The notes: generated by a model not told the origin, from the sequence alone. Positions 1,251 to 61,184 are shown, counted from the whole stretch's first letter. The stretch: DNA of 63,961 bases, filler included, from a bacterium (GCA_040757115.1; 8 parts of 8 records of this genome joined end to end with filler, not necessarily neighbours in it); one strand, 5' to 3'. Program-made: numbers and translations.

Positions 1251-1345
1251 CAAAAAATTCGGTAACCCGTTCAAGGTTATACATTAGAAGTGTAAACAAG
1301 GAGAAATGGGGAAAAGGGAGAATTGGAGAAATGGCTCAAACTTTT

Positions 1346-1530
1346 CCACCTATGCGATTAGACTAATTCATCGCAGAGACGCAAAGAAAAAATAAATGTA
1401 AAATGTAAAATAGGAAATGAAAAATGGGAAATTTTACTACTTCGCAAGACTCATTACCTTTCAGTTATACATTTTCATTGGACATTTTTCATTTTACATT
1501 ATCCATTTTACATTTAACCGCACAGGTCGA
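1346..1530 (-). mobile_element. MITE-like element B (CCACC/CGACCTGTGCG TIR)
   Basis: Near-identical reverse copy of 17376-17545 and 52121-52304; truncates the GxxExxY ORF. Confidence 0.85.
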
Positions 1531-1741
1531 AAAGCTCAAGTCTATGAATCCCAACCTCAACACCTTGATAGAATATCTTAACTTCTTTTTCTGATTCAAA
1601 GATGATGTTCTGTCTTGCAAACTCAACCTTCAAGGCATTGTGATAGATGCTCTCCAGAAAACCAGGTCCTAACTTTTTATGGACATTAATACAGACATTA
1701 ATAATCCTATTAGTTAACTCTTCTTTTCTCCACTTCTCCAT
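1531..1741 (-). pseudogene. GxxExxY protein (PD-(D/E)XK-like), N-terminal half
   Basis: ELTNRIINVCINVHKKLGPGFLESIYHNAL; reading frame runs into element B. Confidence 0.88.
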
Positions 1742-1836
1742 CTTCTCCCTTTCTCCTTATTTTTATCCTACCTGAACCCTTCACCTAACCGCACAGGTCG
1801 AAAATATGGTATACATAGGTTATATGTTTCAAAAGT

Positions 1837-6229: not shown

Positions 6230-6261
6230 TTTTTTCTAACCTCCTTTGTTTGGTAATTTGT

Positions 6262-6626
6262 TAGGGTTCTGCAAAACCAGGAAACTGTAGTTTTTAAGCA
6301 GGTATTTAAAACCTCTATTTTTATCAATTTCATCCAAAGAGCAAAATGCAAAAAGCAAATATAAAAATTACATATCAAAATGTAAAATTATCTCTTTCCT
6401 TTCAGCGCTACTTCCTATTGCTCACCAATTCTTTGAGAAACACTATCCTTTGGCAACTTATCGATGAATTCTATAAGTCGCAGAGTAAAGTTATACACTC
6501 TTTTCTTGAAGTCCTTTTTGAAATTTGATTTGTAATTTTGCATTTTGATATTTATATTTGATATTTAATATTTGATATTTGATATTTATTTATTGTCTCC
6601 CCCAAATCCTATTTTGCAGAACCCTA
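6262..6626. mobile_element. TIR element (TAGGGTTCTGCAAAA) carrying a four-helix-bundle remnant
   Basis: 15-bp inverted ends; TTGGTAATTTGT on both flanks; 7-nt AAATATC-type arms. Confidence 0.75.
6388..6543 (-). pseudogene. Four helix bundle protein, frameshifted and internally deleted
   Basis: MQNYKSNFKKDFKKRVYNFTLRLIEFIDK/LPKDSVSQRIGEQ joined to LKGKR-stop. Confidence 0.75.
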
Positions 6627-8294: not shown

Positions 8295-8394
8295 NNNNNN
8301 NNNNNNNNNNNNNNNNNNNNNNNNNNNNNNNNNNNNNNTTAATTAATTAANNNNNNNNNNNNNNNNNNNNNNNNNNNNNNNNNNNNNNNNNNNN
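8295..8394. other. Artificial contig linker (also 16634-16733, 24946-25045, 33243-33342, 41510-41609, 49753-49852, 57995-58094)
   Basis: 100-bp N44-TTAATTAATTAA-N44 spacer with stops in all six frames. Confidence 0.99.
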
Positions 8395-8720: not shown

Positions 8721-8897
8721 CGATTAGCAAATATTAATTTATCGAGCTCTCTCAACATCTCCAGAGCGCGGATTTGACTGAAGTTTAAAACCAACCGTTC
8801 TTTTATCTTCCCCCCAATTTTTACCATCACAACATCACCAATTCCTGAGCCTGTCAGGACAGGTTTCTGATTTATTCCAGGGCTGGCAACATTTTTT

Positions 8898-9635
8898 CGA
8901 CCTGTGCAGTTAAGATAAACCACGAAGGGCACGAAGACCACGAAGAAAAAATATTGGTAACCGTTCAACCCCTACATTTGGGCTTTTAGGAATTACAAAA
9001 CACAAAATATAGTATTTTGAGAGCCTGTTTTGCTTCCTTTTTTGAGCCTATAAAAAGCGGTGGTTACTATATGTAGGGGGCACCAGCAATTATCACCAAA
9101 CATCTTGCGTTTCACCCACCTGAACGGTTACAAATATTGTAACTATTCAGTAATTATTCAGCCACAGATTAACACGGATAAATAGCAGATAGTAGAGGAC
9201 AAGAGCTAAGATGCAAGGGGCGAGAGAGCAGAGGGGAGAGATAGATGTCCCTCGCTGGCGGGGGATTAAGGGGATGGAAGTTATAGCACTTATTAATCGA
9301 AACTTAACATAGAACGGATAGAAATTTAACTATCAATTGAATGAATGTAGAATATCGAATAATGAATTTAGAATAATGAAGTTTTAGTATTACTTCTACA
9401 TTCAATATTCAATATTTTTCATTTTATGGAAACTTTTGATGAATAACTACTATAGAAGGAGAAAAGCCCTTCAGCCTACAGCACGGATACCGGAGATGCC
9501 TCAGGGATTTTTCCGCGTTTCATCCATGTCCATCTGTGGCTGAATAGTTACGATTTGGTTTATAATTCTTCGTGCCCTTCGTGTGCTTCGTGGTTTTAAA
9601 AGATGTGAGGAAGGTTAATCTAACCGCACAGGTGG
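8898..9635. mobile_element. Composite nested MITE with CGACC/CCACCTGTGC TIR
   Basis: Perfect 8-bp TSD CATTTTTT (8890-8897, 9636-9643); contains further TIR elements. Confidence 0.85.
8957..9131. mobile_element. MITE with GTAACCGTTCA TIR
   Basis: GTAACCGTTCA...TGAACGGTTAC with perfect 8-bp TSD AAATATTG. Confidence 0.85.
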
Positions 9636-9780
9636 CATTTTTTTCTTGACTTTCTCCCATTTTTATTGGTTTTAATTACCACTATTACTATTATCGGCAA
9701 AGAACCTTCTTCTCTTGATTCCTTTGAACTTCATGGAAGTTTTTTCATAATTAGAATTACTGGTTCCTTTCAAAAAGATA

Positions 9781-16374: not shown

Positions 16375-16449
16375 TGGCTCCCCGGGTAGGGCTCGAACCT
16401 ACAACCTAGCGGTTAACAGCCGCTCGCTCCACCATTGAGCTACCGAGGA
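16375..16449 (-). tRNA. tRNA-Asn(GTT)
   Basis: TCCTCGGTAGCTCAATGG...GCGGCT-GTT-AACCGC...GGTTCGAGCC...GGGGAGCCA cloverleaf with CCA. Confidence 0.97.
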
Positions 16450-16500: not shown

Positions 16501-16633
16501 CGACCTGTGCGGTTAAATGTAAAATGAAAAATGTAAAATGTATAACTGAAAGGTAATGAGTCTTGCGAAGGAGTGAAATTTCCCATTTTTCATTTCCTAT
16601 TTTACATTTTACATTTATTTTTCCTTTGCGTCT
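16501..16633 (+). mobile_element. Element B, truncated by contig end
   Basis: CGACCTGTGCGGTTAAATGTAAAATG... matches the other B copies. Confidence 0.85.
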
Positions 16634-16973
16634 NNNNNNNNNNNNNNNNNNNNNNNNNNNNNNNNNNNNNNNNNNNNTTAATTAATTAANNNNNNNNNNN
16701 NNNNNNNNNNNNNNNNNNNNNNNNNNNNNNNNNTCGTGGTGAATAGTTACTCATATTGTTTGGAATTTTGAATTTTGGTCATTGGAATTTATTTGTATTT
16801 TGGAATTTGTGATTTGGAATTTTGCCACTTACTCCGCTCTCCTGCAATCTCTAATCTCCCGTTTATAGTTTATCCTTGTTTACCTCATCTTGTTACCCAA
16901 CTTGTGGGTAAGGATTAGACCCCCGCCAGCGGGGGACAACGGCCAATCAATCACTTGAATGGCGACAGAGCAC

Positions 16974-17290: not shown

Positions 17291-17708
17291 GTAACTGTTC
17301 AGGATATAGCCACAGAGTCACAGAGAACACAGAGGGAATATATAACTACGAATGAACACAAATACAAAAAAATTTCCACCTGTGCGGTTAAATGTAAAAT
17401 GGATAATGTAAAATGAAAATGTATAACTGAAAGGTAATGAGTCTTGCGAAGTACTAAAATTTCCCATTTTTCATTTCCTATTTTACATTTTACATTTATT
17501 TTTCCTTTGCGTCTCTGCGATGAATTAGTCTAATCGCACAGGTGGAAAAATTTGTAGTATGAGGCTTTAGCCTCGCTTCTGGCAAGCCAAAAGGCGAACC
17601 TAAAGATTCGCACTACATTTATGGGATGTCAGAGGTTAATTCGTGTGCATTTATGGTTAATTTCCTTAATTCTCTGTGAACTCTGTGCCTCTGTGGTGGA
17701 ACGCTTAC
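17291..17708. mobile_element. Element C (GTAAC-type TIR) with nested element B
   Basis: Perfect TSD AAATTATG; reverse homolog at 37518-37996, partial copy at 49571. Confidence 0.9.
17376..17545 (+). mobile_element. Element B, complete
   Basis: CCACCTGTGCG...CGCACAGGTGG with perfect TSD AAAAATTT. Confidence 0.9.
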
Positions 17709-22538: not shown

Positions 22539-22558
22539 TCTATTGAAGCCTCATTTGT

Positions 22559-22690
22559 GCCTAACGATAAAGTTCAGGTGCGGCGGGGAGAATTACCACA
22601 AAAGTTTGATAGCAAGATAAAACTTTGAGAGACCACAAAACTCTGACCACGGCACAGTCCCCCGCCGTCAACTGCAACGCAGGGTTAGAC
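22559..22690 (-). mobile_element. Integron attC site (132-bp type)
   Basis: GTCTAAC...GTTAGGC, near-identical to 18717-18848. Confidence 0.88.
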
Positions 22691-22790
22691 AAAAGCTTTA
22701 ATTCGCTGTTTTTTCCCTTTTCCTCTGCCTCACCGAATTATTGTGCATTCCACATTCACGGTTTGACCCTAAAATCTCCCCTATTATTTT

Positions 22791-22959: not shown

Positions 22960-23092
22960 GTCTAACGATAAAGTTCAGGTGCGGCGGGGAGAATTACCAC
23001 AAAAGTTTGATAGCAAGATAAAACTTTGAGAGACTACAAAACTCTGACCACGGCACAGTCCCCAGGCGGTCAACTGCAACGCAGGGTTAGAC
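22960..23092 (-). mobile_element. Integron attC site (132-bp type)
   Basis: GTCTAAC...GTTAGAC. Confidence 0.88.
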
Positions 23093-39979: not shown

Positions 39980-40601
39980 AGTCTATTTCCTCCTTTGTAA
40001 ATTTAATATCTTTAGACTCCTGCAATTTGAAAATTTGTAACACTTTACCCAAGTGAAGTCTCGACAAAAAATAGAACCACCCAGGACATAGAATGGAAAG
40101 AAGTTGAGAGGATGAGAAAATGGTAACCGTTCAGGTAGTGTAAATAGAGAAAAAGGGAAAGGGAGATATAATTTCTAATTTCTAATGTCTAATTGACCTA
40201 AAAAATGTTGAATAACAAAATAACTATCCTGAATTAAATTCAGGATAGGTTTTGGTCATTTAGTCATTGATTAGGGATTAGATTAATTAGGTTAATTAAA
40301 ATTTTTTCCATTTTTCCCTTATTACACCTTGAACACATACAAAATTTTATATTTCTCCCTCTGCAAATGTCAAAGATTTCCTCATCTTTATCTTTGATAT
40401 AAGTGAAATAGCCATAGTTTTATTCTATCACGAAACCTTTAATATGTCAATCAAAATTTTGTTTTTTCAGCAATTCTCGGTGAATTGTTTATGGAGTGCG
40501 GTGGCTTGCCACCGCTTTCAGACTAAGTAAAAAGCAAGCATTATCTCGTGAAGGAAGACAAAGCGAAAGCAATCTTTCACACTCCCAAAAATAAAAATCT
40601 T

Positions 40602-41271
40602 CGACCTGTGCAATTAGAAATAAAGGTAACCGTTCACCGCAGAGACACAGAGACGCAGAGAAAAAATTAAAAACTATTTACCATACGCTTCATTCCATTC
40701 CTGATTTTCATCAGAGCAAGCTTTTGAGGCCCGACATCTCATGATTGATTAACAATCTGGTTTTGATGTCCTATGTAGTGCAATGATTGCCTCAATAATC
40801 TTTTCTGTTATCTGATTTATTTCTCTGTTCCTCTGCGTCTCTGCGGTAAATTACCACCTGAACGGTTACCTATTGTTTAACAAAGAGTTACTTCTCAAAT
40901 CAACGCAATTTGGAACACGCTAAACACGTACAAAGCCCCTGAACATCTTCCTTAATTTTCGAGAGCGTTGCAAATGGTTTTTAGTTATGGTACGGGTTGG
41001 GGAAAGTTTTGGGTGATAAAAAATGCCAAAGCGACAAAAAAGAAATAATCTGCTTAGTTGACATCAAGATGAGGAAGTGTTATATAGTTGTCCCTTCTAA
41101 AGTGGTTAAAGTTTATGATTGATTAAGTCGATAAAGACAACAGAAGTAAGTTTTAAATTTAGGAGGGGAACAATGCATCCAAATAATCAATTCTGTTGTC
41201 ATGAGGTTTCAGGCAAGAGCACAGATAACGGTGGCAGTCACAGAACAGTAGAGATTTACCTGCACAGGTCG
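40602..41271. mobile_element. CGACCTGTGC-TIR composite with nested GTAAC element (40626-40869)
   Basis: CGACCTGTGCA...TGCACAGGTCG ends; no TSD retained. Confidence 0.6.
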
Positions 41272-41386
41272 AATTTTTTTGTTGACACAAGGAAAAATTT
41301 TTGCTAAAATACCTCCAAAATAGGCAAAAATAGATATGATAGCCAAAAAACACCCAAAAAGCATCTATGGCAAAGACCAAATAATT

Positions 41387-41509
41387 GTAAGCGTTCAGGT
41401 GGTGTAACAAAAGGAGATGTGGAGATTAAGGAGATAGGGAGATATTATTAAAAAAATTGAAATTAATAGAAACTAATAGAAATTTATGGAAATTTGTTGT
41501 TTTCCACAA
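41387..41509 (+). mobile_element. Partial element A at contig end
   Basis: Matches the left half of A. Confidence 0.85.
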
Positions 41510-41609
41510 NNNNNNNNNNNNNNNNNNNNNNNNNNNNNNNNNNNNNNNNNNNNTTAATTAATTAANNNNNNNNNNNNNNNNNNNNNNNNNNNNNNNNNNN
41601 NNNNNNNNN

Positions 41610-41731
41610 TTCCACAATCAATTTCTACCTATTTCTATAAATTTCAATCTATTTCTATTATCTTATCTCCATATCACTCTTATCTCCTTATCCCCTTTCT
41701 TACACTTTTGATATATAGCCTGAACGGTTAC
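41610..41731 (+). mobile_element. Partial element A at contig start
   Basis: Matches the right half of A. Confidence 0.85.
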
Positions 41732-41857
41732 AGATTAATAAACAACGAAAGACCCAAAATGCACAAAAAAAGGAAATTTCTGTTTCTGGTGAATAGATTT
41801 TAATTTTTTCTCTGCGTCTCTGCGTCTCTGCGGTAAAGGACTACCTGAACGGTTACA

Positions 41858-42959: not shown

Positions 42960-43273
42960 GTGTTTTTTTTGTCAATCATCAAGACTAAACTATCAAAAAA
43001 TCATAACTTTACAATATATTGAGTTGGATAGAAACTTAACACGCTAAATATTGAGGTATTAATTTTTAAATTTTTTTATATTTTTTCCTGCGGGCAGCAT
43101 ACGGTCTTTTCAACGACATCCTTGTTTCTTCATCTGATGCTTCTTCTCCCCTCTTTCTATTTATAGGATTACAAAATATATGTATTCCCACCATTACCAG
43201 GAATAAAAAACTAACAATGATAAATAAATCTAATCCCATTCCCTTTTTCCCGGTTTTTCCATTTTCCCTTATT

Positions 43274-43500
43274 GTAAGCGTTCAGGTGGTGTAACAAAAG
43301 GAGATGTGGAGATTAAGGAGATAGGGAGATATTATTAAAAAAATTGAAATTAATAGAAATTTATGGAAATTTGTTGTTTTCCACAATCAATTTCTACCTA
43401 TTTCTATAAATTTCAATCTATTTCTATTATCTTATCTCCATATCACTCTTATCTCCTTATCCCCTTTCTTACACTTTTGATATATAGCCTGAACGGTTAC
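43274..43500 (+). mobile_element. Complete element A (227 bp)
   Basis: GTAAGCGTTCAGG...CCTGAACGGTTAC; flanks CCCTTATT/GCCTTATT (7/8 TSD). Confidence 0.9.
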
Positions 43501-43535
43501 GCCTTATTTACACCTTCACATGGCTAAAGTGTTAC

Positions 43536-46500
43536 TTATTCCCCAATTAATTTAATATTAGTCACTCTACCCCAGAATCCCCAACCACTACCATAGATAT
43601 TTATCTTTGTAATCACAACTGGTTTGGGAGAGAGTTGTTTTATAAGATTAGTCGAGACAAATGTCTGCCAGGTCTTTTCTTTGACGATTTCTTCTAATTC
43701 TGGTGCGGTTATTTTGCCCTGGTACTTAAATCCTTTTCGCCAGATGTGGGTCTTGTTTTCTATATCCATATATTCTAATTCTAAAATGAGCGGATAACTG
43801 CTTTCAACAAACTTATCACCAAAAAATGAGGAATAAATAACCTTTATATCTGCCATTAATACCAAAGATATAAAAGTAGATATAGGCATCCACACTGATT
43901 GGCTGATGCCTAATTTCCCTTCTTCGGTTGATACTCTTGTAAATTCAAAGGCATTTGGATAACTATCACTATCCTTCATTACAGATATTTTATTTAGCCC
44001 TTTACCTATTTCTATCTTTTCCCAATTACTTAAACCAATTGTAAAATCACCATTGGTTAATAATTTTGTTGGTTGTGTTGGAGGAGCAGGTATTTCTTTC
44101 TTTTCTACAGGTATCTTTTTTGGTCGTTCTGCTATTATTTCAGGCATTTTTACCTCTTCTGTTATCGGCACCTCTTTTTTGGGAATTTCTGGTGCGACGG
44201 CAATTGCTACTGGTGGTTCTGGCACAACTGGTAATGTTTGTTCACAAACTAATTGAAGATTGGCAAGCCGACTCTCAAATGCCAGCCCAGAACCATATAT
44301 CTTTACCCCTTTGATTACTCTTGGTTTTGGAGTAAGAAGGTCTATTAAGTTAGGAGATGTATAAGAATACCATTTATTTTTAGTGATACACTCGCCAATT
44401 TTGGGATAATTAATCTGTTTTCGATACAGAAAACCATGTTTAAATGATTTAATCTCCCCCAGTGCATCCGCATATTCCAATTCAATCGTCATCGGGTAAT
44501 CTCCACCTTCAATCCCATCATTTGCTAAAGAGGCATTGATAACCTTAATATCTGCCTTCACAACTACATACACATATTCAGAAATATCCATATTTAACCG
44601 TTGTTTTATCCCTAATTCTCCCTTTTCTCTTCCTGCTTTGGTTCGGTTGAATTCTAAAACCTCTGGATAGTTTTCACTTTCTTTAATCACATCTATTTCT
44701 TTCTTTCCATAGCCTATCTCAAATTTCTGCCAATGGTCTAATCCCTTTTTAAAATCAGGATTAGTGAGTTTTGGAAGTATTTCTTCTATTTTTGGAGGTA
44801 ATGTTATTTTTTCTTCAGGTATAACTTTGGCAATTTTAATTTCTGGTTTTGCCGGCGGTGCTTCTTCTGGAACAGCGGGTTTAATAATCTCCTCTACTTT
44901 TGGTGGTGGTACAGGTGGAAACTCAGGTAATTTAACTGGTATTTCAGGTTTTGGCACCTCTTTTGGCACTGGTGGTTTTACCTCTACCGGCTTTGGAACT
45001 TCAACCTTTATTTCTTCTTTTGGTGGTGCAGGTGGTAACTCAGGTAATTTAACTGGTATTTCAGGTTTTGGCACCTCTTTTGGCACTGGTGGTTTTACCT
45101 CTACTGGCTTTGGAACTTCAACCTTTATTTCTTCTTTTGGTGGTGCAGGTGGTAATTCAGGTAGTTTAACTGGTATTTCAGGTTTTGGCACCTCTTTTGG
45201 CACTGGTGGTTTTACCTCTACTGGCTTTGGAACTTCAACCTTTATTTCTTCTTTTGGTGGTGCAGGTGGTAACTCAGGTAATTTAACTGGTATTTCAGGT
45301 TTTGGCAGCTCTTTTGGCACTGGTGGTTTTACCTCTACTGGCTTTGGAACTTTAACCTTTATTTCTTCTTTTGGTGGTGCAGGTGGTAACTCGGCAATAA
45401 CTACAGATGGTTCTTCTACTGGTCGTTCACCCTCTTCAACAGCGAGGTTCACATTATCAATTCTCGCTTTGAATCCTATTCCGGCACCATATATCTTCAA
45501 ATTTGTAAGTATCTGAGGTTGAGGAGATAATATCTCCACCAAATTTGGGGATGAATATGAATACCATTGATTTTTAGGTATCTTCTCACCTATGTCCGGA
45601 TAGTTAAGTGTGCTTTCTTTATAAGGTTCATCATAAAGAAAACCATGTTTCCAAACATTAACATTTCCTTGTGCATCTTTATATTCTAATTCAATCATTA
45701 CCGGATATAATTTGTCCTCATCACTCGCCAATGATGAAAAAATAAGTTTAACATCCGCACCAATTATTAATGAGTTACAATTAGAAATATCCATATTTAA
45801 TGATTGACTTATCCCTAATTCCCCTTTTTCCTTTACCATGCCAATTCTTTTATATTCAAATACCTTTGGATACTGTTTGGTATCAAAAATAACCTGGAGT
45901 ATCTTTTTCCCTCCCGGGGTCTCAATCTTATCCCAATATTTTAAATCAAGTGAAAAATCAGGGTTAGTAAGTAGCTTGGGTATTATTCTGCCTGCTCTTT
46001 TTGGAGGGAGTTTTGGTTTTTCTACTATTTGAGGTAATTCAACTGGTGGTTTTGGAGGCTTGACCTCTTCGACGATTTTAGGCTTTTCCTCGATAACTGG
46101 TTTCTCTGGAACTTTGGCAATGACTTCTTCTTTTGGCTGGACTTCCTTTACTATTGGTGGAATTTCAACCTTTGGGATTTCGGGTAGTTTTACTTCCTTT
46201 GGTTTTTCAGGCACAGGTGGTTTTGAAGGTTTGACCTCTTCGACGACTTTCGGCTTCTCCTCGACAACTGGTTTCTCTGGAACTTTGGCAATGACTTCTT
46301 CTTTTGGCTGGACTTCCTTTACTATTGGTGGAATTTCAACCTTTGGAATTTCAGGTACTTTTACCTCCTTTGGTTTTTCAGGCACAGGTGGTTTTGGAGG
46401 CTTGACCTCTTCGACGATTTTCGGCTTTTCCTCGACAACTGGTTTCTCTGGAACTTTGGCAATGACTTCTTCTTTTGGCTGGACTTCCTTTACTATTGGT

Positions 46501-48533
46501 GGAATTTCAACCTTTGGAATTTCAGGTAGTTTTACTTCCTTTGGTTTTTCAGGCACAGGTGGTTTTGGAGGTTTGACCTCTTCGACGATTTTCGGCTTTT
46601 CCTCGATAACTGGTTTCTCTGGAACTTTGGCAATGACTTCTTCTTTTGGCTTTATTTCCTTTACTATTGGTGGAATTTCAATCTTTGGAATTTCGGGTAG
46701 TTTTACTTCCTTTGGTTTTTCAGGCACAGGTGGTTTTGGAGGTTTGACCTCTTCGACGATTTTCGGCTTTTCCTCGACAACTGGTTTCTCTGGAACTTTG
46801 GCAATGACTTCTTCTTTTGGCTGGACTTCCTTTACTATTGGTGGAATTTCAATCTTTGGAATTTCAGGTAGTTTTACTTCCTTTGGTTTTTCAGGCACAG
46901 GTGGTTTTGGAGGTTTGACCTCTTCGACGATTTTCGGCTTTTCCTCGACTGGTTTTTGTGGAGGTAAAACCTTTGGAAGTTCTGCAACGACTATTTCTTT
47001 CACCTCGAATTTTCCAGTCCAATATTCACGAGGATAAGAAGAGAGACTTCGACAACGAAGTGATGACAAATCAGCCGGTTTGGTTTTGTCATCTTCGGTT
47101 ATAAATAATAAAGAACCAAATTGGCGGTCAACATAAACATGGTAGGTAAAGAAATCGCCCGGGGTGAGTTGTCGGTCTTTATCTTCAAGTTCTACGAGGA
47201 GATTTTTACCTGGAACTACTTCACCTTGCATTTCAGTATTGAGTAATATCTGGCTTTGCGTTTTCCCGCGTTCGGTAAGGATATTTGCCCCTCGTGTAAA
47301 TGACGGGTCTATTTCCATACTAACATTTAATGTAGTGGGTAAAAGTGGTTGTTGTCTATAATTAAATCTTGTTGTCTTTTCCTTTGCATTCAAATATGCC
47401 ATACCTACATCTATGACTTTTCCCATTTCTTCACTACTGATTTTATTATCCCAGCCTATATTTTTTTCGATTAATTCTGTTCGTATCTCCGGAGTTATAC
47501 CAAGTTCAATCCAGCGACCAAATATTGGTCGTCCATCTTCATAAGAGCGTAAAACAGCAGATGGAATAGTAATAATATCAAATCCCTTATCTGGAGGAAG
47601 ACCAGCCTCTTGCGGTGAGACGATACTGAAATATAATTCTACACCCTTTTTAGTTTTAGAAAAAACAAGTTTTATAGGTAAATTTTTAGCGATAACATAA
47701 ATATCTCCAAGTCCAGGACCAATCAGGCTTAACTCAGAAGAGTTTAATTCTGATTTCAAATCCGTCAAGGGGGTGTAAATTAGTCTAATAGAATTACGGG
47801 ATAAGGCTTGAACTTCAAGTTTGGCATTAGTTCCTTGTAAAGAAAGGTCGGGTTGAACATCTGCGAGGGCAGCGAAATTGCCTATTTTAAGTCCTAATGT
47901 ATGCTCAATTGCGGTCCGGGAAATAATTCCCGTGTAGCTCTTATCACCATTGGGGTCGTGTAAAATAGTAAGTGGTAGGTATGGAAGATAGGTATAACTC
48001 GAACCGGATAAATACCGCACCATAACAAAAGCAACCTTTTCTCCACTTGAAGGACCAATAGGCAGGTCAACTCTGGTCACAAACTTATATCTTACCTCAG
48101 GGTCTTTTTGAACGACCATTGGGGTAATGAATTCGCGCAAATCTACGCTTTTACGATTAGAGACGATTTCCTCTGCCTTTTCATAAAGTAATTCCCATTT
48201 GCCAGAATAAGGATAAGATTCCTTTTCTAATTTGATAATCACAATTGCTTTTTCATCCAGGCCTGATGTATTATTTCCTCGCCAATCAACCTTAAATCGA
48301 AATGAATCTATATCCTCTTTCAATACCAATGTCGTATCTTCCGCCAGTGAGGCACCGGCATTGGCCCAAATAGGTATTTCCAACAGACCCCGCCAGTCAC
48401 CAAAAATATTTCCTACAGAAATAATTGACGGCGTAACATTAGTATTAATTGTTGCTTCTTTTCCATAAACCAAAGATGCAATAGTTAGTGATAAAAAGGT
48501 TACCCAGTAAAAAACTTTACTTCTCCCTTTCAT
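43536..48533 (-). CDS. Giant secreted protein with P/E/V/K-rich tandem repeats and three CBM-like domains
   Basis: Signal peptide; three paralogous LTN.DF...W.K.E domains; 57-aa and 39-aa repeat tracts. Confidence 0.85.
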   Translation of the reverse strand: MKGRSKVFYWVTFLSLTIASLVYGKEATINTNVTPSIISVGNIFGDWRGLLEIPIWANAGASLAEDTTLVLKEDIDSFRFKVDWRGNNTSGLDEKAIVIIKLEKESYPYSGKWELLYEKAEEIVSNRKSVDLREFITPMVVQKDPEVRYKFVTRVDLPIGPSSGEKVAFVMVRYLSGSSYTYLPYLPLTILHDPNGDKSYTGIISRTAIEHTLGLKIGNFAALADVQPDLSLQGTNAKLEVQALSRNSIRLIYTPLTDLKSELNSSELSLIGPGLGDIYVIAKNLPIKLVFSKTKKGVELYFSIVSPQEAGLPPDKGFDIITIPSAVLRSYEDGRPIFGRWIELGITPEIRTELIEKNIGWDNKISSEEMGKVIDVGMAYLNAKEKTTRFNYRQQPLLPTTLNVSMEIDPSFTRGANILTERGKTQSQILLNTEMQGEVVPGKNLLVELEDKDRQLTPGDFFTYHVYVDRQFGSLLFITEDDKTKPADLSSLRCRSLSSYPREYWTGKFEVKEIVVAELPKVLPPQKPVEEKPKIVEEVKPPKPPVPEKPKEVKLPEIPKIEIPPIVKEVQPKEEVIAKVPEKPVVEEKPKIVEEVKPPKPPVPEKPKEVKLPEIPKIEIPPIVKEIKPKEEVIAKVPEKPVIEEKPKIVEEVKPPKPPVPEKPKEVKLPEIPKVEIPPIVKEVQPKEEVIAKVPEKPVVEEKPKIVEEVKPPKPPVPEKPKEVKVPEIPKVEIPPIVKEVQPKEEVIAKVPEKPVVEEKPKVVEEVKPSKPPVPEKPKEVKLPEIPKVEIPPIVKEVQPKEEVIAKVPEKPVIEEKPKIVEEVKPPKPPVELPQIVEKPKLPPKRAGRIIPKLLTNPDFSLDLKYWDKIETPGGKKILQVIFDTKQYPKVFEYKRIGMVKEKGELGISQSLNMDISNCNSLIIGADVKLIFSSLASDEDKLYPVMIELEYKDAQGNVNVWKHGFLYDEPYKESTLNYPDIGEKIPKNQWYSYSSPNLVEILSPQPQILTNLKIYGAGIGFKARIDNVNLAVEEGERPVEEPSVVIAELPPAPPKEEIKVKVPKPVEVKPPVPKELPKPEIPVKLPELPPAPPKEEIKVEVPKPVEVKPPVPKEVPKPEIPVKLPELPPAPPKEEIKVEVPKPVEVKPPVPKEVPKPEIPVKLPELPPAPPKEEIKVEVPKPVEVKPPVPKEVPKPEIPVKLPEFPPVPPPKVEEIIKPAVPEEAPPAKPEIKIAKVIPEEKITLPPKIEEILPKLTNPDFKKGLDHWQKFEIGYGKKEIDVIKESENYPEVLEFNRTKAGREKGELGIKQRLNMDISEYVYVVVKADIKVINASLANDGIEGGDYPMTIELEYADALGEIKSFKHGFLYRKQINYPKIGECITKNKWYSYTSPNLIDLLTPKPRVIKGVKIYGSGLAFESRLANLQLVCEQTLPVVPEPPVAIAVAPEIPKKEVPITEEVKMPEIIAERPKKIPVEKKEIPAPPTQPTKLLTNGDFTIGLSNWEKIEIGKGLNKISVMKDSDSYPNAFEFTRVSTEEGKLGISQSVWMPISTFISLVLMADIKVIYSSFFGDKFVESSYPLILELEYMDIENKTHIWRKGFKYQGKITAPELEEIVKEKTWQTFVSTNLIKQLSPKPVVITKINIYGSGWGFWGRVTNIKLIGE
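44905..45395 (-). repeat. 117-bp tandem repeat, about 4 copies (39 aa)
   Basis: GGTGGTGCAGGTGG recurs at 45022, 45139, 45256, 45373. Confidence 0.95.
46045..46950 (-). repeat. 171-bp tandem repeat, about 5.3 copies (57 aa)
   Basis: TTGACCTCTTCGACG recurs every 171 bp from 46060 to about 46915. Confidence 0.95.
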
Positions 48534-49551: not shown

Positions 49552-49977
49552 ATGAGGTTATCAGTAATTCGTAACCGTTCAGGATATAGCCACAGAGTTA
49601 CAGAGAACACAGAGGGAATATAGCAGTTATTAGTCAAAACTTTATTCAGAGTGGATAAGTAAAAAAAATCCCAAATCCCAAGCACCAAATCTCAAATAAA
49701 CACCAAATTCCACATACCAAAAAGCGAATTAGAGATTAGTGAATTAGAGATTNNNNNNNNNNNNNNNNNNNNNNNNNNNNNNNNNNNNNNNNNNNNTTAA
49801 TTAATTAANNNNNNNNNNNNNNNNNNNNNNNNNNNNNNNNNNNNNNNNNNNNGTTGAGAAGATTTTCACATCCTTAATCCCCCGCCAGCGGCGGAGAAGG
49901 GAGAGTACGTCTTTAACCTTAATGCGGGGAGGTTTCTCTTCTAACCGCACAGATCGAATAATTGTGCTGAATAGTTA

Positions 49978-51496: not shown

Positions 51497-51753
51497 AGCG
51501 GGCAGAAATTGCAGAAGAATGTTGGAAGAGTTGGAAGTGTTGAAAGGGTTGAAGGAGTTGGAAGGGTTGAAAACATTTCCTTAACTGACACTGACACTGT
51601 CACTGACATAGGTAAGGTTTATGAAAAATTCGGTGGTGTCTTAATCTAGCATAAAGGTTAAAATAGTGTATAGGGTTCTGCAAAATAGGATTTGAGGGAG
51701 ACAACAAATAAATATCAAATATCAAATATTAAATATCAAATATAAATATCAAA

Positions 51754-51867
51754 ATGCAAAATTACAAATCAAATTTCAAAGAGGAAGTAGCAGGGTTTCT
51801 CAAAGAGTTGGAGGAATTTGGTAATATCTTTGCTTCAAGTATTTTAACGCTGAAAGGAAAGAGATAA
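51754..51867 (+). pseudogene. Four helix bundle protein, in-frame internal deletion (37 aa)
   Basis: MQNYKSNFK joined to EEVAGFLKELEEFGNIFASSILTLKGKR, inside a TAGGGTTCTGCAAAA element. Confidence 0.75.
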
Positions 51868-51888
51868 TTTTACTGAACTTTGGCAAAG

Positions 51889-51978
51889 ATAGTTTATAGT
51901 TTATAGTTTATAGTTTATAGTTGATAGTTTATAGTTGAAGGACTATAAACTATACACTATAAACCATAAACTATAAAC
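51889..51978. repeat. 7-nt periodic inverted repeat (TTTATAG)n/(CTATAAA)n
   Basis: Seen directly. Confidence 0.85.
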
Positions 51979-52120
51979 GAGTTTTGCATTTTGCTCTTTG
52001 GAGGAAATCCCTTTTGGACACCAAATCTGCATAGATTTCACTATTAGAGTTATTTTCAGACACCACCAAAGCAAAAGTGTTTTCAAAACGATTTTCTGTT
52101 TTTCAATCGGTGAAAAATCG

Positions 52121-52304
52121 CCACCTGTGCGGTTAAATGTAAAATGGATAATGTAAAATGAGAAATGTAAAATGAAAATGTATAACTGAAAGGTAATGAG
52201 TCTTGCGAAGTACTAAAATTTCCCATTTTTCATTTCCTATTTTACATTTTACATTTATTTTTCCTTTGCGTCTCTGCGATGAATTAGTCTAATCGCACAG
52301 GTGG
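52121..52304 (+). mobile_element. Element B
   Basis: CCACCTGTGCGG...CGCACAGGTGG. Confidence 0.85.
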
Positions 52305-52415
52305 AATTTTTTTGTAAGCTGATTAAACAGATTACATTTTTTATTGTAAGCGGATTGAACGGATTGAGCGGATTTTTTTTATTTCTTTTTCCGCTAAATC
52401 CGTTAAATCCGCTTA

Positions 52416-53081
52416 CTAATCTTTATGTTCATCGGAAATCAAATCGGAACGGTAATAAAAAACGGTAATCTCGTTTTTAGCAAACGGCAGGACATTTTCG
52501 CGCTTCACGCTCTCGTAATCTCTCAAATTTTTAAGGTTTATCTTTGTGTTAAAGTTAAAGCTGTTAAATTCCTCAACATGATTTTTGAATTGGTCCAAAA
52601 GGTCATCGCGGTGAACCAAAAAGAGAATATCTCCTGTAAGCAATTCTTCTTCGGCAATAAGCTTGCCCAAAAGCTCAATAAGTTTAACGATAATCAGCGT
52701 CTTGCCCGAGCCGGTCGCCATCCAAAAGCTCATTCGGTTTATAAAATGTGCGAAAGGGATTTTTGAATCTATGGCGGGATAATCCTTATCATATTCTAAA
52801 AGATATTTTGCCGTCTTTTTGCCTTCCCTCTTTTTCAGGTCGTAATCAAAGTTTTCCCTAAAATCGTTGGTTTGATAGTGAACAAATAAACTCTGTTTGT
52901 CCGCTTTTTTGTCTTTAAAATAAAGCCATAAACCTTTGAGTGCGTTTTGAAGCCCTTCTTTTTGAAAATCAAAAAGCGTCTTGTCTTTTGAAAACCGCGC
53001 AAAATCAAACCCCTGCCATTTTGCCGGTAAGTTTTCAAAAGAAATATCATCTACGATGTTTTGTAAGTATAAGTTACTCAT
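52416..53081 (-). pseudogene. Type III restriction (Res) helicase, truncated
   Basis: FWMATGSGKT Walker A motif; ends before DEAH at a 9-mer hairpin repeat. Confidence 0.85.
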
Positions 53082-53776: not shown

Positions 53777-53778
53777 AT

Positions 53779-57465: not shown

Positions 57466-57692
57466 ACTCCCTGTAATTGGTAACTGGTGATTGGTAACTG
57501 GTAATTAGTTACCAATCACCAGTTACCAGTACCTTATTCGAGCCAAATGCCTTATCACAATTTCGTGCGTTATTTGTTCTACACGACACTATCAACTCCG
57601 TCATTTCCAAGCATACCACAATTTCTTCCTTTTTGCAAGCATTTTTTATTGACTTTTTGGGGAAAACTATGTATAATAATCCGCAGATTTCA

Positions 57693-57985
57693 GTAACCGT
57701 TCAGGTAGTCCTTTACCGCGGAGACGCAGAGGAACAGAGAAGACATAGAAATAAAGTAACTATTCAGCCACTGATTAACACGGATTAGCACGGATAAATC
57801 CAGAGGGCAGAAGGCAGAGGACAGAGGACAACAGGAGGAAAAATCTTCAGCCTAACTACGGACACGGATACCGGACACGATTCACGAATTTTCAGTGTTT
57901 CATCTGTGTCCATCTGTGGCTGAATAGTTATCAATAAATTTTAATTTTTTCTCTGCGTCTCTGTGTCTGTGCGGTGAACGGTTAC
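57693..57985. mobile_element. GTAACCGTTCA element with nested GTAACTATTCA element (57756-57931)
   Basis: Two nested TIR pairs; 9-mer arms. Confidence 0.8.
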
Positions 57986-58413
57986 AGAATTTGTNNNNNN
58001 NNNNNNNNNNNNNNNNNNNNNNNNNNNNNNNNNNNNNNTTAATTAATTAANNNNNNNNNNNNNNNNNNNNNNNNNNNNNNNNNNNNNNNNNNNNACTATT
58101 TTTGTGCCTTTTTAGGGATATAAGTCAAGAAAAATATTTTTAAAAAAACTTAATTTTTTACTTGACATTTCACCATAAGACTTTGTGAGTCGCAGACTCA
58201 TGAGCGTTTCTCCTGAAAATAGCGAATTAGTGAATTAGAGATTAGCGAATTAGTATAGTATCCACAGACTCGTATCCTCTGGTGTAGAACAGATATTCCC
58301 CCTTAATAAAGGGGGTTAGGGGGTTGTTCTTCCATTATTTTCATCCCCCTTTGTGAATCGCAGACTCATGAGCGTTTCTCCTCACAAACTTAGTATAAGA
58401 GGTATTATCAAAA

Positions 58414-59159: not shown

Positions 59160-60704
59160 ATGGAAAATGAATTTGTAAAGTGTATGAAGCAATTGTCTGT
59201 TTTGGCTAATCAAATTGAAAATGGTAATGCGGAAAATTTATATAGATACGAAGATATACGAGATATAGCGAAAAAAATAGCCCAGATGGTAGATGCCAGA
59301 GATGCGTATAATCAAGGGCATTCTGAGAGAAAAGCATACTATGCCGCCTCAATTGCTCAAGAACTGGGATTTAAAAATATAGAAATCGAAATCATAAAAA
59401 TATCTACTTTACTCCATGATATTGGAAAAATTGCTATTGGTGAAAAGGTATTGCAAAAACCAGGCAAGTTAGATAATATAGAATTTAACAACATTAAAAA
59501 ACACCCGCTTATTAGCGAACGAATTCTCACGCCAGTAGGACTTCCAGGACAACTCCTATCAGCCATTCGCTATCATCATGAATCACCTAATGGAAAAGGA
59601 TATCCAGATGGTCTTTGTCAGGATGAGATTCCGATGGAGGCAAGTATTATTAAGGTTGTAGATGCTTTTAGCGCTATGATTTCAAATAGACCTTATAGAC
59701 AGGCATTATCTTTTCAAGAGGCGATAAATCAATTGAAACAATCTGCGGGCGCAGAATTTGATGCTAATATAGTCGAGGTGTTTCAACAAATCATAGAATT
59801 AGAAGAAACAAGAAGAAATAAAACAAAAACTCCAGATAAAAAAATATTAATAGGAGATGGAGAACCGTTAAATGCCAATTTGCTTGTCTATGGTTTAGAA
59901 AAAGATGGATTTGAGACAATTTGTGCCCATAGCGGAGAGGATGTTCTGGAAAAAGTATATCATACTTATCCAAACCTTATACTTTTAAATGCCTGTTTAC
60001 CAGATATATTAATTATTATCCGAAGGCTTAAAAATGACCCACGCTCTGGACACATCCCCATCATTACCTTTGGGGCAAAAACGACAGAGCAAGAAATTAA
60101 GATTTTAGAAAGTGGAGCAAATGGACATATAACTGATATATTTGAGTCTAAAAAAGTATCTTCACAACTCAATGCCTACCTGCGAAGGACAGACTATGAA
60201 AAATCACTTGACCCATTAACCGGCCTGCCTGGCAATTTCTTTATTAAAGAAGAGATTAAGGAAAGAATAAATCAACCTGAAAAATTTGCTATATTATATC
60301 TTGATATAGATAATTTAAAGGCAGTTAATAAAACCTATGGTTTTTTTCAAGGAGATGAGGTAATTAAATTAACGGCTAAAATCATCACTGAAACTATTAA
60401 AAATATTGGTAATCCAACTGATTTTATTGGACATTGTAGCGGAGACGAATTTACCGTTATTACCTCTGTATCTAACTGGGAGAAAATCGCTCATCAGATA
60501 ATTTCTACCTTTGATGATGAAATTAAATCTGCATATCCACCTGAATCTTTTTCCACCCATCCTATCCTGACTATCTCTATTGGAATAGTTACCAATGAGA
60601 AGATAGAGATAAATAATTATTTTCAAGCCCACGCCTTAGCCTTAAAGGCAATAGAAGAGGCTAAATCCTTACCGGGCAGTTCCTACTATTTTGTCAAATC
60701 GTAA
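59160..60704 (+). CDS. HD-GYP / REC-like / GGDEF signalling protein
   Basis: HDIGK, HHE..NGKGYP, degenerate REC, DPLTGLP, SGDEF; promoter at 59048-59077. Confidence 0.88.
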   Translation: MENEFVKCMKQLSVLANQIENGNAENLYRYEDIRDIAKKIAQMVDARDAYNQGHSERKAYYAASIAQELGFKNIEIEIIKISTLLHDIGKIAIGEKVLQKPGKLDNIEFNNIKKHPLISERILTPVGLPGQLLSAIRYHHESPNGKGYPDGLCQDEIPMEASIIKVVDAFSAMISNRPYRQALSFQEAINQLKQSAGAEFDANIVEVFQQIIELEETRRNKTKTPDKKILIGDGEPLNANLLVYGLEKDGFETICAHSGEDVLEKVYHTYPNLILLNACLPDILIIIRRLKNDPRSGHIPIITFGAKTTEQEIKILESGANGHITDIFESKKVSSQLNAYLRRTDYEKSLDPLTGLPGNFFIKEEIKERINQPEKFAILYLDIDNLKAVNKTYGFFQGDEVIKLTAKIITETIKNIGNPTDFIGHCSGDEFTVITSVSNWEKIAHQIISTFDDEIKSAYPPESFSTHPILTISIGIVTNEKIEINNYFQAHALALKAIEEAKSLPGSSYYFVKS

Positions 60705-60956
60705 CTATTTACTCAAGTAAAGTGTAACAAAGGAAAAAGGGGAAATGAAGAAAAATAGGAAAGGAAGGAGTATTTGGGTTATGGTTAGGAAATCAGTAGG
60801 GAAGTTGGGTTAAGAAGTTAGTGAAGGAAAAGACTAATTTCCTAATCCCTACGACCAAACAAGCATTTTAACCATCATCTATTTCTTTTCCCTTTTTCCC
60901 AGTTTTTCCATTTTTCCTTATGGACACCTTCAGATGGTTAAAGTGTTAAACTATTC

Positions 60957-61098
60957 GGAACGGTTCATTTTATCGTTTTCCCTATGATTTTTGTTGGAAA
61001 TTAGAAATTAGAAATTGGGCTTTTGTCTCTCTCCCTAATTTCCAAATTCCAATTTCTAATTTCAATCCGCAAGATTTCAAACAAAAGTGAACCGTCCC
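60957..61098. mobile_element. MITE with GG.ACGGTTCA.TTTT TIR and ATTAGAA 7-mer arms
   Basis: Inverted ends seen directly. Confidence 0.65.
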
Positions 61099-61184
61099 TA
61101 TATGTCAATATTTGAGCTTCATGAATTCGATAATTCATCGAATTTCACTTCGTGCTCTCCGTGCCCTTCGTGGTGAATAGTTAC
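61099..61184 (-). pseudogene. GxxExxY remnant, near-identical to 38278-38363
   Basis: KFDELSN/IHEAQILTY with GTAACTATTCA end. Confidence 0.8.

Follow-up and report, generated by a model that had tools for sequence, protein, structure and literature searches.

Periodic hairpins and gene remnants in the window

The window, i.e. the whole stretch of 63,961 nt that was analysed, consists of eight unrelated contigs of a groundwater bacterium, ~8.2 kb each and joined by N44-TTAATTAATTAA-N44 linkers, and the span 1262-61184 given in the original prediction is therefore not one locus. Genome-wide counts refer to the nearest genome, G001, and to fetched loci. The spacers of this bacterium contain many broken copies of tiny arm-gene-arm cassettes, amplified as miniature transposons. 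The following elements were found in the window.

1262-1800, minus strand: GxxExxY cassette remnant with GGAGAAA-type 8-nt arms at 1294-1331 and 1725-1762
1338-1533, unstranded: AAATGTA-heptamer hairpin MITE with outer ends of CGCACAGGTSG type
6257-6626, minus strand: AAATATC heptamer-armed non-autonomous element with AGGGTTCTGCAAAA inverted ends and a flanking TTGGTAA repeat
8896-9640, minus strand: gene-less CACGAAG-armed shell, arms at 8917-8947 and 9566-9596
22791-22946, minus strand: internally deleted GxxExxY element of junction class E, both CACGAAG arms kept
31440-32001, unstranded: single spacer with several arm modules in a row, none with a gene: array of CGCAAAG units (31440-31466), then hairpins of ACAGGAT (about 31520-31640), GGGAAAA (about 31684-31860) and CACGAAG type (31914-32001), the last with degenerate GTAACTATT..AATAGTGAC ends
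37518-37996, unstranded: CACAGAG-armed element with GTAACCGTTCA ends, arms at 37528-37545 and 37961-37978
37996-38365, minus strand: class D GxxExxY remnant with GTAACTATTCAC end, CACGAAG arm and 8 codons fused to 'IHEAQILTY'
40624-41856, unstranded: modules with CGCAGAG arms and GTAACCGTTCA ends; at 40767-40823 (minus strand) the remnant of a GxxExxY N-terminus
43248-43535, unstranded: insertion absent from G001, a 227-bp MITE (43274-43500) with GTAAGCGTTCAGG ends inside a GGGAAAA-type arm remnant
51664-52416, unstranded: hairpin chain of an AAATATC array with AGGGTTCTGCAAAA end (51664-51790), a TTTATAG hairpin (51889-51978), an AAATGTA MITE (52121-52304) and a CGGATT hairpin (52342-52416)
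57473-57985, unstranded: GGTAACT heptamer hairpin (57473-57530) and GTAAC-ended elements (57693-57985)
60997-61184, minus strand: ATTAGAA heptamer hairpin (60997-61063) and adjoining class D GxxExxY remnant (61099-61184)
63540-63961, plus strand: N-terminal DUF559 fragment (63710-63922) with AAGGGGGTTAGGGGGTT words ahead of it; a ~200-bp repeat cuts it

An inverted repeat that beats 10 shuffles was found in 14 of the 40 spacers of at least 80 nt, and 13 of these 14 are periodic; by our own reading of the spacer table, the long spacers are mostly among those bearing inverted repeats. The predicted unit types were recovered by TRF and by the inverted-repeat search, but not their presence in 'almost every intergenic region'. 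The three hairpins described as 'empty' are real and fold far better than shuffled sequences, with z-scores of -7.4 for 31914-32001 (CACGAAG units), -9.6 for 51889-51978 (TTTATAG units) and -8.6 for 52342-52416 (CGGATT units), and three further hairpins of the window range from -4.1 to -9.1. A single spacer may carry four or five different modules, and the arm types of spacer 31440-32001 also flank the intact G001 genes L008, L017 and L004. An Rfam scan returned tRNA-Asn only. A 703-bp indel at 29940-30642, considered as a member of this class, was rejected for edges without repeats.

No intact cargo gene is present in the window, only remnants. The N-terminal GxxExxY half that had been noticed in the first cassette was confirmed at 1514-1741 on the minus strand (1529-1741 for the gene part itself), where it matches positions 1-64 of the 116 of TIGR04256 (E = 1.4e-17); an intact copy in G001 is 93% identical to it over residues 1-71. 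The C-terminal half of this gene is displaced by a nested heptamer MITE, and the intact relative of the cassette, L016 in G001, has the identical arm type. The AAATGTA MITE at 1338-1533 has >25 matches of 88-97% identity on different G001 contigs, further copies lie at 16514-16617, 17390-17497 and 52121-52304 of the window, and an end motif of its type was counted 9 times where 0.01 would be expected. In the element at 6257-6626, tblastn identified a four-helix-bundle N-terminal remnant (6418-6546), the window's sole survivor of the PF05635 family.

Nesting recurs elsewhere. The loop of the shell at 8896-9640 is occupied by two nested GTAAC-ended MITEs (8957-9131 and 9139-9551), the first with an 8-bp duplication, AAATATTG. 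A heptamer hairpin (37680-37814) is nested inside the element at 37518-37996, and forms skipping 37623-37859 exist among Logan contigs. The neighbouring class D remnant, with its C-terminal GxxExxY part at 37996-38085, is interrupted by a nested MITE at about 38059-38276 with GAAAGTAG arms at 38098-38214; contigs of both DNA runs contain a joint from 38058 to 38276, with 217 nt skipped and 8 letters that fit either side. The MITE at 43274-43500 has at least 25 copies in G001 with 94-99% identity. In the element at 22791-22946 about 10 N-terminal codons are fused to the C-terminal 'KLANIKVGLL...' part, and the class D remnant at 61099-61184 has a CACGAAG arm and the GTAACTATTCAC end.

Arm type follows the cargo family

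The small proteins concerned belong to two very large families, GxxExxY and 'four helix bundle / 23S rRNA IVS protein', neither of which has a known function. Family assignments in G001 are secure: the E-value for PF13366 is 2.6e-45, the GxxExxY matches pass the curated TIGR04256 / PF13366 cut-off, TIGR02436 has 38 matches, and three four-helix-bundle copies match PF05635 with E-values of 6e-38, 2e-15 and 8e-14. Full-length genes make up 17 of the 75 GxxExxY matches, and intact copies are greatly outnumbered by gene-less and deleted ones. GxxExxY matches number 0-22 per genome in relatives and 75 in G001, indicative of a burst specific to the lineage.

By our own reading of the printed flanks of G001, inverted periodic arms surround every intact gene examined, 17 of 17 for GxxExxY and 16 of 16 for the four-helix bundle; for L010, L011 and L032 the automatic arm aligner gave only 10-nt matches. 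A period of 7 nt was seen at 12 of the 16 four-helix-bundle genes and at none of the 17 GxxExxY genes (Fisher p = 5e-6), and arm unit changes 17 times on the protein tree compared with 29.5 in shuffles. Thus, for these two families, the prediction that arm type tracks cargo type is borne out by period and by protein clade. The third predicted pair, DUF559 with AACCCCCT, did not hold up in the same way: it is represented by fragments only, the window's 63710-63922 and three partial G001 matches, and its link to arms is weak. Between sister cassettes on the protein tree, the unit differs at 1-2 letters in every repeat of both arms.

The association extends beyond this lineage. With five closer sequences as query, the cross-genome search found related cassettes in hundreds of public genomes, and arm unit type is conserved across phyla with protein clade. 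CRCRRAG arms were counted at 37 to 48 of 77 related genes across phyla, for which the shuffled-pair control is a poor one, since pairing also takes place between the arms of separate loci.

In a wobble test for an RNA stem, arm mismatches of G:U type and A:C type number 73 and 55 (p = 0.13), a strand asymmetry that is not significant. Of 52 copies, 50 are co-oriented with neighbouring genes, only just above a lineage baseline of 0.875 (p = 0.03, with copies that are not independent).

Target duplications and filled or empty sites

Among 53 elements bounded by GTAA..TTAC, an exact 8-bp duplication was found at 20, compared with 0.32 expected, and no duplication of any other length above 3 bp; 32 are without duplication, including L001, the one intact gene-bearing copy with both ends. 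In the window, the end motif GTAACYRTTCA occurs 25 times against 0.1 expected. The element ends (GTAAC..GTTAC) compare with the IS66-family ends given in parts of the published descriptions, GTAAGCGTCCGG.., GTAACCGTCCGGGCA and GTAACTGCTCAGCA, the last of which comes with an 8-bp direct repeat. Both such ends and the 8-bp duplication are typical of the IS66 family, and a transposase of this family (ISBst12-like), acting in trans, is the most likely mover of the MITEs. G001 has IS66-family transposase fragments at contig ends, with three PF03050 matches of which two are cut by the contig end; their candidate ends are motif-like yet do not pair with each other, and attempts to assemble an IS66-family copy whose ends match from these G001 fragments gave none.

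Comparison of the window with G001 revealed filled and empty sites. The elements at 6257-6626 and 43248-43535 are absent at the orthologous G001 sites, the genes flanking the former being 97% identical in G001, and a 167-bp heptamer hairpin of G001 is missing at about 59140 of the window. Moreover, the fabD-fabG spacer is 441 bp long with a four-helix-bundle cassette in G001, and 19, 91, 534 and 1508 bp long in four relatives, with unrelated inserts among related genomes. The view that arm-gene-arm units are mobile or amplifying is therefore upheld.

Such gain and loss between nearly unchanged genes is hard to reconcile with arms that serve the host as terminators, RNA-stability hairpins or regulatory sites, selected via their neighbours, with the small genes incidental. 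The very stable hairpins (z from -4 to -9.6) and their location between co-oriented genes would suit such a function, as would the Xanthomonas heptamers, which passages of Rehm 2015 (PMC4692102) place between aligned ORFs in increased-stability regions. However, up to four or five different modules in one spacer, unrelated inserts in the same spacer of related genomes, and copies with transposon ends and duplications would not be expected from it, and we consider a host-serving origin decidedly improbable.

The same sites bear on integron-type gene cassettes (a promoter-less ORF plus an attC hairpin) and REP/RAYT-type palindromes, with which the present elements share small co-oriented genes, hairpin-forming repeats and modules in tandem. 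Unlike in integron cassettes, the ORF lies inside the loop between two arms instead of ahead of a single attC, and copies are dispersed between housekeeping genes, e.g. fabD and fabG, with 8-bp duplications upon insertion; an origin of this kind is very improbable.

Arms and ends can be separated. A MITE with GTAAC ends but no arms exists (8957-9131). In other phyla, GTAAC-type ends are on both sides of only 2 of 75 related genes, and target duplications around the cassettes there are not found beyond the level of shuffles. Because an armless MITE has the same ends, and cassettes of other phyla are armed without ends or duplications, the arms are part of the cassette and not of the transposon shell, and the two layers are separable.

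Deleted copies are themselves amplified

The deleted GxxExxY remnants at 22791-22946, 38277-38363 and 61099-61184 read as they had been described, and the same junctions are present in G001, that of 22791-22946 (class E) at 6 and that of class D at 9 distinct places. One 292-bp derivative with an identical junction, bounded by GTAACTATTCAC..GTGAATAGTTAC, occupies 9 loci in G001. For the CACGAAG family as a whole, 40 or more copies of the 5' end are present there, with junction classes of 14 (a chimeric class), 9, 6, 4 and 3 copies. Deleted copies are thus amplified and do not just decay where they sit; each junction class goes back to a single event, the product of which has since spread to many loci, and this replaces the earlier idea of cargo repeatedly purged site by site. 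Possible microhomology at these junctions amounts to 2 to 6 shared letters, as judged against stand-in parents that are only about 88% identical.

Since these junctions occur in an independent assembly, they are not chimeras of the window assembly. An origin of the whole pattern in assembly chimeras or amplification products of a repeat-rich metagenome bin could appeal to the joined short contigs of the window, which end in repeats, and to the repeat-filled spacer 37545-38335, which is spanned by none of the listed Logan contigs of the two DNA runs. But the same elements, junctions and duplications recur in G001 at many loci with unique flanks, and related cassettes populate hundreds of public genomes, making an artefact scarcely credible.

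A predicted nuclease and the possibility of autonomous movement

GxxExxY is a predicted PD-(D/E)XK nuclease. In 15 copies D67, E77 and K79 are invariant, and the D67..E77-x-K79 and GxGxxExxY motifs are kept across copies of 35-62% identity. The model (pLDDT 95) has a compact predicted PD-(D/E)XK, restriction-endonuclease-like fold, for which a fold search ranked restriction enzymes and Cas4 best (Z about 8), with Hjc resolvase at Z 6.9; these matches are generic to PD-(D/E)XK, and Z-scores of 8 or less are in a range that unrelated models also reach. No solved structure matches GxxExxY by sequence (best E 0.47).

Such a protein could bind or cut the arm repeats of its own cassette, in duplex form or folded into a DNA hairpin or cruciform, and so drive movement of the cassette, with the deleted copies as non-autonomous derivatives and the IS66-like shell as a late addition. 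Consistent with this, deleted copies keep ends and arms and lose the sole gene, which is classical non-autonomous logic, the nuclease and GxGxxExxY motifs are invariant among diverged copies, the predicted fold is compact, unit type is conserved across phyla with protein clade, and period differs between cargo families. Yet the second cargo, the four-helix bundle, has the same design though it is no nuclease, cassettes lacking a shell are without duplication or other footprint, and the fold matches stay within the range of unrelated models. Moreover, units of sister cassettes differ at 1-2 letters in all repeats, a poor fit to strict sequence recognition. On balance we consider autonomous movement unlikely.

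A bolder form of this idea, and a slightly more doubtful one, is that the GxxExxY cassette would be the smallest autonomous mobile element yet, ~0.45 kb, moved by its 125-aa nuclease, which would act on its own periodic arms, either as repeated sites or in the form of a DNA hairpin or cruciform, without target duplication and across phyla. Arms would then be rebuilt from a single unit in each round, which would explain the joint change of all repeats between sister cassettes. If true, 23S IVS, many 'orphan' heptamer families and the MITE swarms of this genome would be the landing sites, footprints and hijacked copies left by one superfamily.

Discussion

We favour, with a probability of roughly 60%, an explanation in two layers: an IVS-like cassette and an IS66-type MITE shell, with decay by deletion and nesting followed by amplification. 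In the first layer, a small promoter-less gene is tightly enclosed by inverted arrays of a family-specific short unit, of 8-10 nt (e.g. CRCRRAG plus 1-2 letters) if the cargo is the putative 125-aa PD-(D/E)XK nuclease (GxxExxY / PF13366), and of 7 nt if it is the four-helix-bundle protein (23S_rRNA_IVP / PF05635). Cassettes of this kind would sit co-oriented within transcription units and spread between phyla. We infer that pairing of the two arms in the transcript creates a substrate for RNase III, which would cut there as it does in the Coxiella element, so that the host transcript would be little harmed by the insert.

In the second layer, cassettes of this lineage and their deleted or chimeric derivatives carry outer inverted ends, e.g. 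GTAAC(Y)(R)TTCA, and insert with exact 8-bp target duplications at dozens of loci, other copies having other ends. Inverted ends, 8-bp duplications and dozens of copies together therefore amount to MITE-like behaviour, most likely powered by the transposase proposed above. Decay would combine infrequent deletions inside the elements with insertions nested in hairpin loops, and amplification of every product in turn would leave arms everywhere and intact genes rare.

The genome pair shows that the package is mobile DNA, that arms and transposon ends are separate layers, and that deleted copies are amplified. A concrete origin is thereby proposed for rRNA intervening sequences as well as some of the intergenic heptamer families, and its parts can be tested: a single nuclease with its arm words, RNase III, and a transposase of IS66 type. 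Mobile cassettes and repeats also explain the poor assembly of such genomes. In the searchable literature we found no description of gene-plus-arms packaging of GxxExxY or four-helix-bundle genes, and no work joining heptamer, tandem and inverted repeats with the intervening sequence protein; the name GxxExxY appears in just 3 papers, and arms are the subject of none of them.

Comparison with known systems

At the level of the protein, GxxExxY would share its predicted fold and the invariant D..ExK motif with PD-(D/E)XK nucleases of similar size, namely Cas4, restriction endonuclease domains and archaeal Hjc.

Intergenic heptamer families are known from Xanthomonas and Nostoc (GGGAATC / GGGGAYT; Rehm 2015, PMC4692102) and from Beggiatoaceae (TAACTGA; PMC4679880). 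As far as the relevant passages go, they too are tandem 7-nt units located mostly between aligned ORFs, and in Xanthomonas 70-75 convergent repeat pairs can form stem-loops (PMC4692102). The passages of Rehm 2015 on these repeats explain them as G-quadruplex motifs and leave enclosed genes unmentioned. In contrast to the Xanthomonas and Nostoc heptamers, the arms described here track two gene families, and most of their units cannot form quadruplexes.

With MITEs of the IS66 family (single-ORF ISBst12 group) the elements have in common the ends GTAA(C/G)(C/Y)(G/R)T, the exact 8-bp duplication, the lack of a transposase, many copies at unrelated sites and internal-deletion derivatives. They differ in their passenger, a conserved hairpin cassette with its own gene and not a stretch of the parent IS, and other modules use other ends, AGGGTTCTGCAAAA and CGCACAGGTSG.

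A close parallel is the ORF-bearing 23S IVS of Coxiella burnetii, also found in Leptospira and others (PMC4990558). In the parts of that report concerned with it, the S23p ORF of the Coxiella IVS is preceded by three GACAGAT heptamers, the stem measures 28 bp, and recombinant RNase III cuts the IVS in vitro; strains differ in heptamer copy number, the ORF is in decay, and the IVS is considered a selfish element (PMC4990558). Published 23S IVS sit in helix 25 or 45 of the 23S rRNA gene. The present copies lie between protein-coding genes instead of in rRNA helices, with dozens to hundreds per genome. In a tblastn search the 23S loci of G001, G003 and G012 were free of cassette ORFs, and G001's 23S gene copy has no inverted repeat of cassette type. 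They also include a second cargo, the GxxExxY nuclease with its own 8-10 nt units, and many of them have transposon ends and target duplications; by analogy with the Coxiella element, for which RNase III cutting is known in vitro, their transcripts may be cut likewise. The original prediction knew of no defined mechanism for its arm-gene-arm units, which is an overstatement: amplified copies have IS66-type ends and exact 8-bp duplications, and the cassette has the design of the ORF-bearing 23S IVS, with a small S23p / PF05635 four-helix-bundle ORF inside terminal inverted repeats that form a long stem, with heptamer arms, and with G001 genes that match the same Pfam family.

Contigs of the window and the comparison genome

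The 63,961-base window is made of eight contigs of ~8.2 kb apiece, ordered from longest to shortest and ending mostly within repeats, which are joined by seven linkers.

Linkers N44-TTAATTAATTAA-N44 in the window
8295-8394, linker
16634-16733, linker
24946-25045, linker
33243-33342, linker
41510-41609, linker
49753-49852, linker
57995-58094, linker

Because the window consists of joined contigs, those flanking a linker are not neighbours in the genome, and the span 1262-61184 of the original prediction therefore samples eight separate places. The one DNA sequencing run containing the window is labelled as a groundwater metagenome. For the cassette census and for the comparison of filled and empty sites we used the nearest related genome, G001 (4.7 Mb, 770 contigs), which has 32% of sampled 31-mers in common with the window; most orthologous genes show 95-99% identity between the two, and certain segments 82-91%.

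A tRNA-Asn (GTT) at 16375-16449 is the sole Rfam or ARAGORN match in the window. The segment 18581-24945 has raised GC (~0.42), carries a gene pair (135 aa and 94 aa) at 23218-23909, matched nothing in G001 at E 1e-100 apart from one multi-copy repeat, and may be an island. At 29940-30642, 703 bp with a 177-aa DUF2204-like nucleotidyltransferase gene are missing at the orthologous site of G001, and their edges are without repeats. A 1665-aa ORF occupies 43536-48533, with near-perfect tandem repeats of 117 nt (x4.2) and 171 nt (x5.3).

Periodic hairpins in the spacers

TRF detected ~160 short-period arrays in the window, which were paired by an inverted-repeat search, and six hairpins, including the three that had been described as empty, folded with z of -4.1 to -9.6 relative to dinucleotide shuffles. 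Thus, the periodic hairpins are real. That almost every intergenic region holds one was an overstatement, as an inverted repeat beating all 10 shuffles was found in 14 of 40 spacers of at least 80 nt (period 6-10 nt in 13 of the 14), mainly the long ones by reading of the spacer table. Nesting is common; for instance, the CACGAAG shell at 8896-9640 has two MITEs within its loop, and several gene-less modules stand in line within a single spacer. At 31011-31388, amid spacers packed with gene-less arm modules, is a DUF5618 gene (E 2.9e-36) for which no arms of its own were seen. For window 33343-41509, depth summed over contigs of run X1 was ~320 at unique genes versus 17,000-97,000 at hairpin-filled spacers, and this summed depth, which is not a copy number, shows that the hairpin repeats of this segment are very abundant in the sample.

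Arms enclose two families of small genes

In G001, the GxxExxY model gave 75 matches, 17 of them full length, and the four-helix-bundle model gave 38, of which 16 intact ones were analysed. The families were identified as PF13366 (E 2.6e-45) and PF05635, the '23S rRNA-intervening sequence protein' (E 6e-38). By reading of the flanks, two inverted arrays bracket all 33 intact genes, starting at a distance of between a few bases and some tens from the start and stop codons; at loci L010, L011 and L032 the automatic arm aligner returned only 10-nt matches. The unit varies among copies, and within each copy both arms match. Units around GxxExxY genes were CGCAGAG, CACGAAG, CACAAAG, CGCAAAG, CACAGAT, ACGGATT, ACAGGAT and GGAGAAA, and those around four-helix-bundle genes include GTCGTAA, GGCAGAG, GTGAAAG, GGTAACT, GTGAATT and CCAAATT.

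The proposal that arm type tracks cargo type held: period 7 was found at 12 of 16 four-helix-bundle genes versus 0 of 17 GxxExxY genes (Fisher p = 5e-6, the true significance being lower since paralogues are non-independent), and the split persists across distinct unit types. For DUF559, a putative association has as its basis one N-terminal window fragment and three partial G001 matches. On the sense strand, the 5' arm is rich in purines in 17/17 GxxExxY and 11/16 four-helix-bundle copies. Fifteen GxxExxY copies sharing just 35-62% identity all retain the GxGxxExxY motif together with D67, E77 and K79. Structure prediction (pLDDT 95) gave a restriction-endonuclease-like fold, and a search for a close solved relative found none.

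Deleted copies are copied lineages

With intact G001 proteins as queries, tblastn detected five remnants in the window and no intact cargo gene. The remnants listed here were found as originally described, the two short ones being readable straight from the sequence.

GxxExxY remnants in the window
1514-1741, minus strand, match to TIGR04256 positions 1-64 of 116
38277-38363, short remnant
61099-61184, short remnant

Partial GxxExxY matches in G001 sort into discrete classes. The '50-115' class is a single 292-bp element at nine loci with unrelated flanks, reading in order GTAACTATTCAC end, CGCAGAG arm, junction, C-terminal half of the gene, second arm and GTGAATAGTTAC, and ~167 nt (~45 codons) are lost at the junction. 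In G001, the 5' end of the CACGAAG family, to which three of the originally described remnants belong, is present at least 40 times, and these copies diverge into classes once 8 to 27 codons have been read.

Classes of the CACGAAG family in G001
Chimera running on into four-helix-bundle-type arms, 14 copies
KFDELSN/IHEAQ junction, 9 copies; also window 38277 and 61099
ISNKV/KLANIK junction, 6 copies; also window 22791
Further internal deletion, 4 copies
Interrupted by nested hairpin, 3 copies
Intact gene, 1

The different junctions had been seen correctly, but their reading as separate local purges did not stand: each junction marks one lineage, later copied to many loci. Inferred breakpoints share strings of 2 to 6 letters, which, short of the exact parent copies, are no evidence for the proposed microhomology deletion. 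The chimera (at least 14 copies; L067, L074, L184 and 11 other loci) joins 27 GxxExxY codons, preceded by the CACGAAG end, directly to GTGAATT arms, the type around the four-helix-bundle gene at L043 and L044. A ~230-bp repeat, multi-copy in G001, brackets the ISNKV/KLANIK remnant as two direct copies (22558-22790 and 22960-23190). The 75 GxxExxY matches of G001 compare with 0-22 in 19 relatives. All 22 in G012, of the same phylum and another family, cover at most ~56 profile positions, most being positions 2-46, and look like an independent swarm of one deleted derivative, made up of N-terminal fragments.

Transposon-type ends and empty sites

The window contains 25 occurrences of the motif GTAACYRTTCA (0.1 expected), typically paired as plus then minus. 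Pairing of such ends across the window and the loci fetched until then gave 53 bounded elements, of which 20 lie between exact direct repeats of 8 bp (0.32 expected with shuffled flanks), one has 3 bp and 32 have none; a duplication is present in five of nine copies of the 292-bp element. This pattern matches the IS66 family, for which the available parts of two reports give the ends GTAAGCGTCCGG.. and GTAACCGTCCGGGCA (PMC12888890) and, for a single-ORF member, the end GTAACTGCTCAGCA with an 8-bp direct repeat (PMC12898284). Fragments of IS66-family transposases exist in G001, two of which are truncated at the end of a contig, and a matching pair of ends was not obtained for them, hence the acting transposase is one that we infer. 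Other modules have alternative ends, AGGGTTCTGCAAAA with a TTGGTAA repeat, and CGCACAGGTSG.

Sites differing in occupancy
6257-6626, heptamer-armed element with a four-helix-bundle remnant, absent from G001 (flanking genes 97% identical)
43248-43535, absent from G001
near 59140, window without a 167-bp GGTTATC hairpin present in G001
38059-38275, nested MITE; form without it in contigs of two runs, 8 letters fitting both sides

Moreover, the fabD-fabG spacer among family members measures 19, 91, 441, 534 or 1508 bp: the 441-bp form (G001) is a four-helix-bundle cassette, the 534-bp form has a different hairpin and a small ORF, and the 1508-bp form, by reading, has a methyltransferase-like gene and one more gene. 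Taken with the 8-bp duplications, the filled and empty sites bear out a mobile, amplifying class. Overall, the observation behind the original prediction is confirmed in part and its interpretation supported in part, and repeated local purging does not stand.

Ends and arms are separable layers

The MITE at 8957-9131 has GTAAC-type ends, is flanked by an 8-bp duplication and lacks periodic arms. Scanning one genome per species recovered no fewer than 594 relatives of a single GxxExxY clade, spread over many phyla; the 80 that were kept have 56-74% identity. CRCRRAG arms (CACAGAG, CACGAAG, CACGGAG, CGCAGAG and others), which across phyla usually begin (T)TCACC or AACC, were present at 37 to 48 of 77 loci, both GTAAC-type ends at only 2 of 75, and no target duplication beyond shuffles was found at cross-phylum cassettes. 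Transposon ends and arms can thus be separated. That the GxxExxY nuclease moves its own cassette seems unlikely to us.

The protein tree of 47 cassettes intermixes phyla, which points to horizontal spread. Unit type is clustered on this tree (17 changes versus 29.5 in shuffles; as low in 0/200), yet switches often. Every unit of both arms differs at one or two purine positions between sister cassettes, which implies that the arms are renewed in concert, a pattern more easily reconciled with a constraint on structure than with recognition of one set sequence by a protein.

Comparison with 23S rRNA intervening sequences

No cassette ORF was found within the 23S genes of G001, G003 and G012. These 23S genes (L285 and L286 in G001, L284 in G003, L283 in G012) extend ~490-740 nt beyond the Rfam model, the extra parts having no GxxExxY or four-helix-bundle ORF, and the G012 copy contains long hairpins. 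G:U-type mismatches in arms numbered 73 versus 55 of A:C type, leaning toward an RNA stem without significance (p = 0.13), and co-orientation with neighbours (50/52) was slightly above the lineage baseline of 0.875.

In a literature search of article texts, no paper naming 'GxxExxY' concerned arms, and none combined 'intervening sequence protein' with inverted heptamer tandem repeats. In Xanthomonas, 70-75 convergent heptamer pairs were treated as quadruplex motifs, and the available part of that report does not mention enclosed genes (Rehm 2015, PMC4692102), whereas the arms here enclose genes.

The closest described system is the intervening sequence (IVS) of 23S rRNA. According to the available part of one report (PMC4990558), the Coxiella IVS contains a decaying S23p (four-helix-bundle) ORF and has inverted repeats at its termini that pair into a 28-bp stem, which recombinant RNase III cuts in vitro; three tandem GACAGAT heptamers, whose copy number differs by strain, precede the start codon, and mobility of IVS-type elements is an old proposal. 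Because the cassettes share all anatomical features of the IVS save location, the role of the arms would most likely lie at the RNA level, where they would fold and be cut by RNase III, so that a cassette might be tolerated inside an operon or rRNA with little damage. The modules are IVS-like cassettes riding as MITEs.
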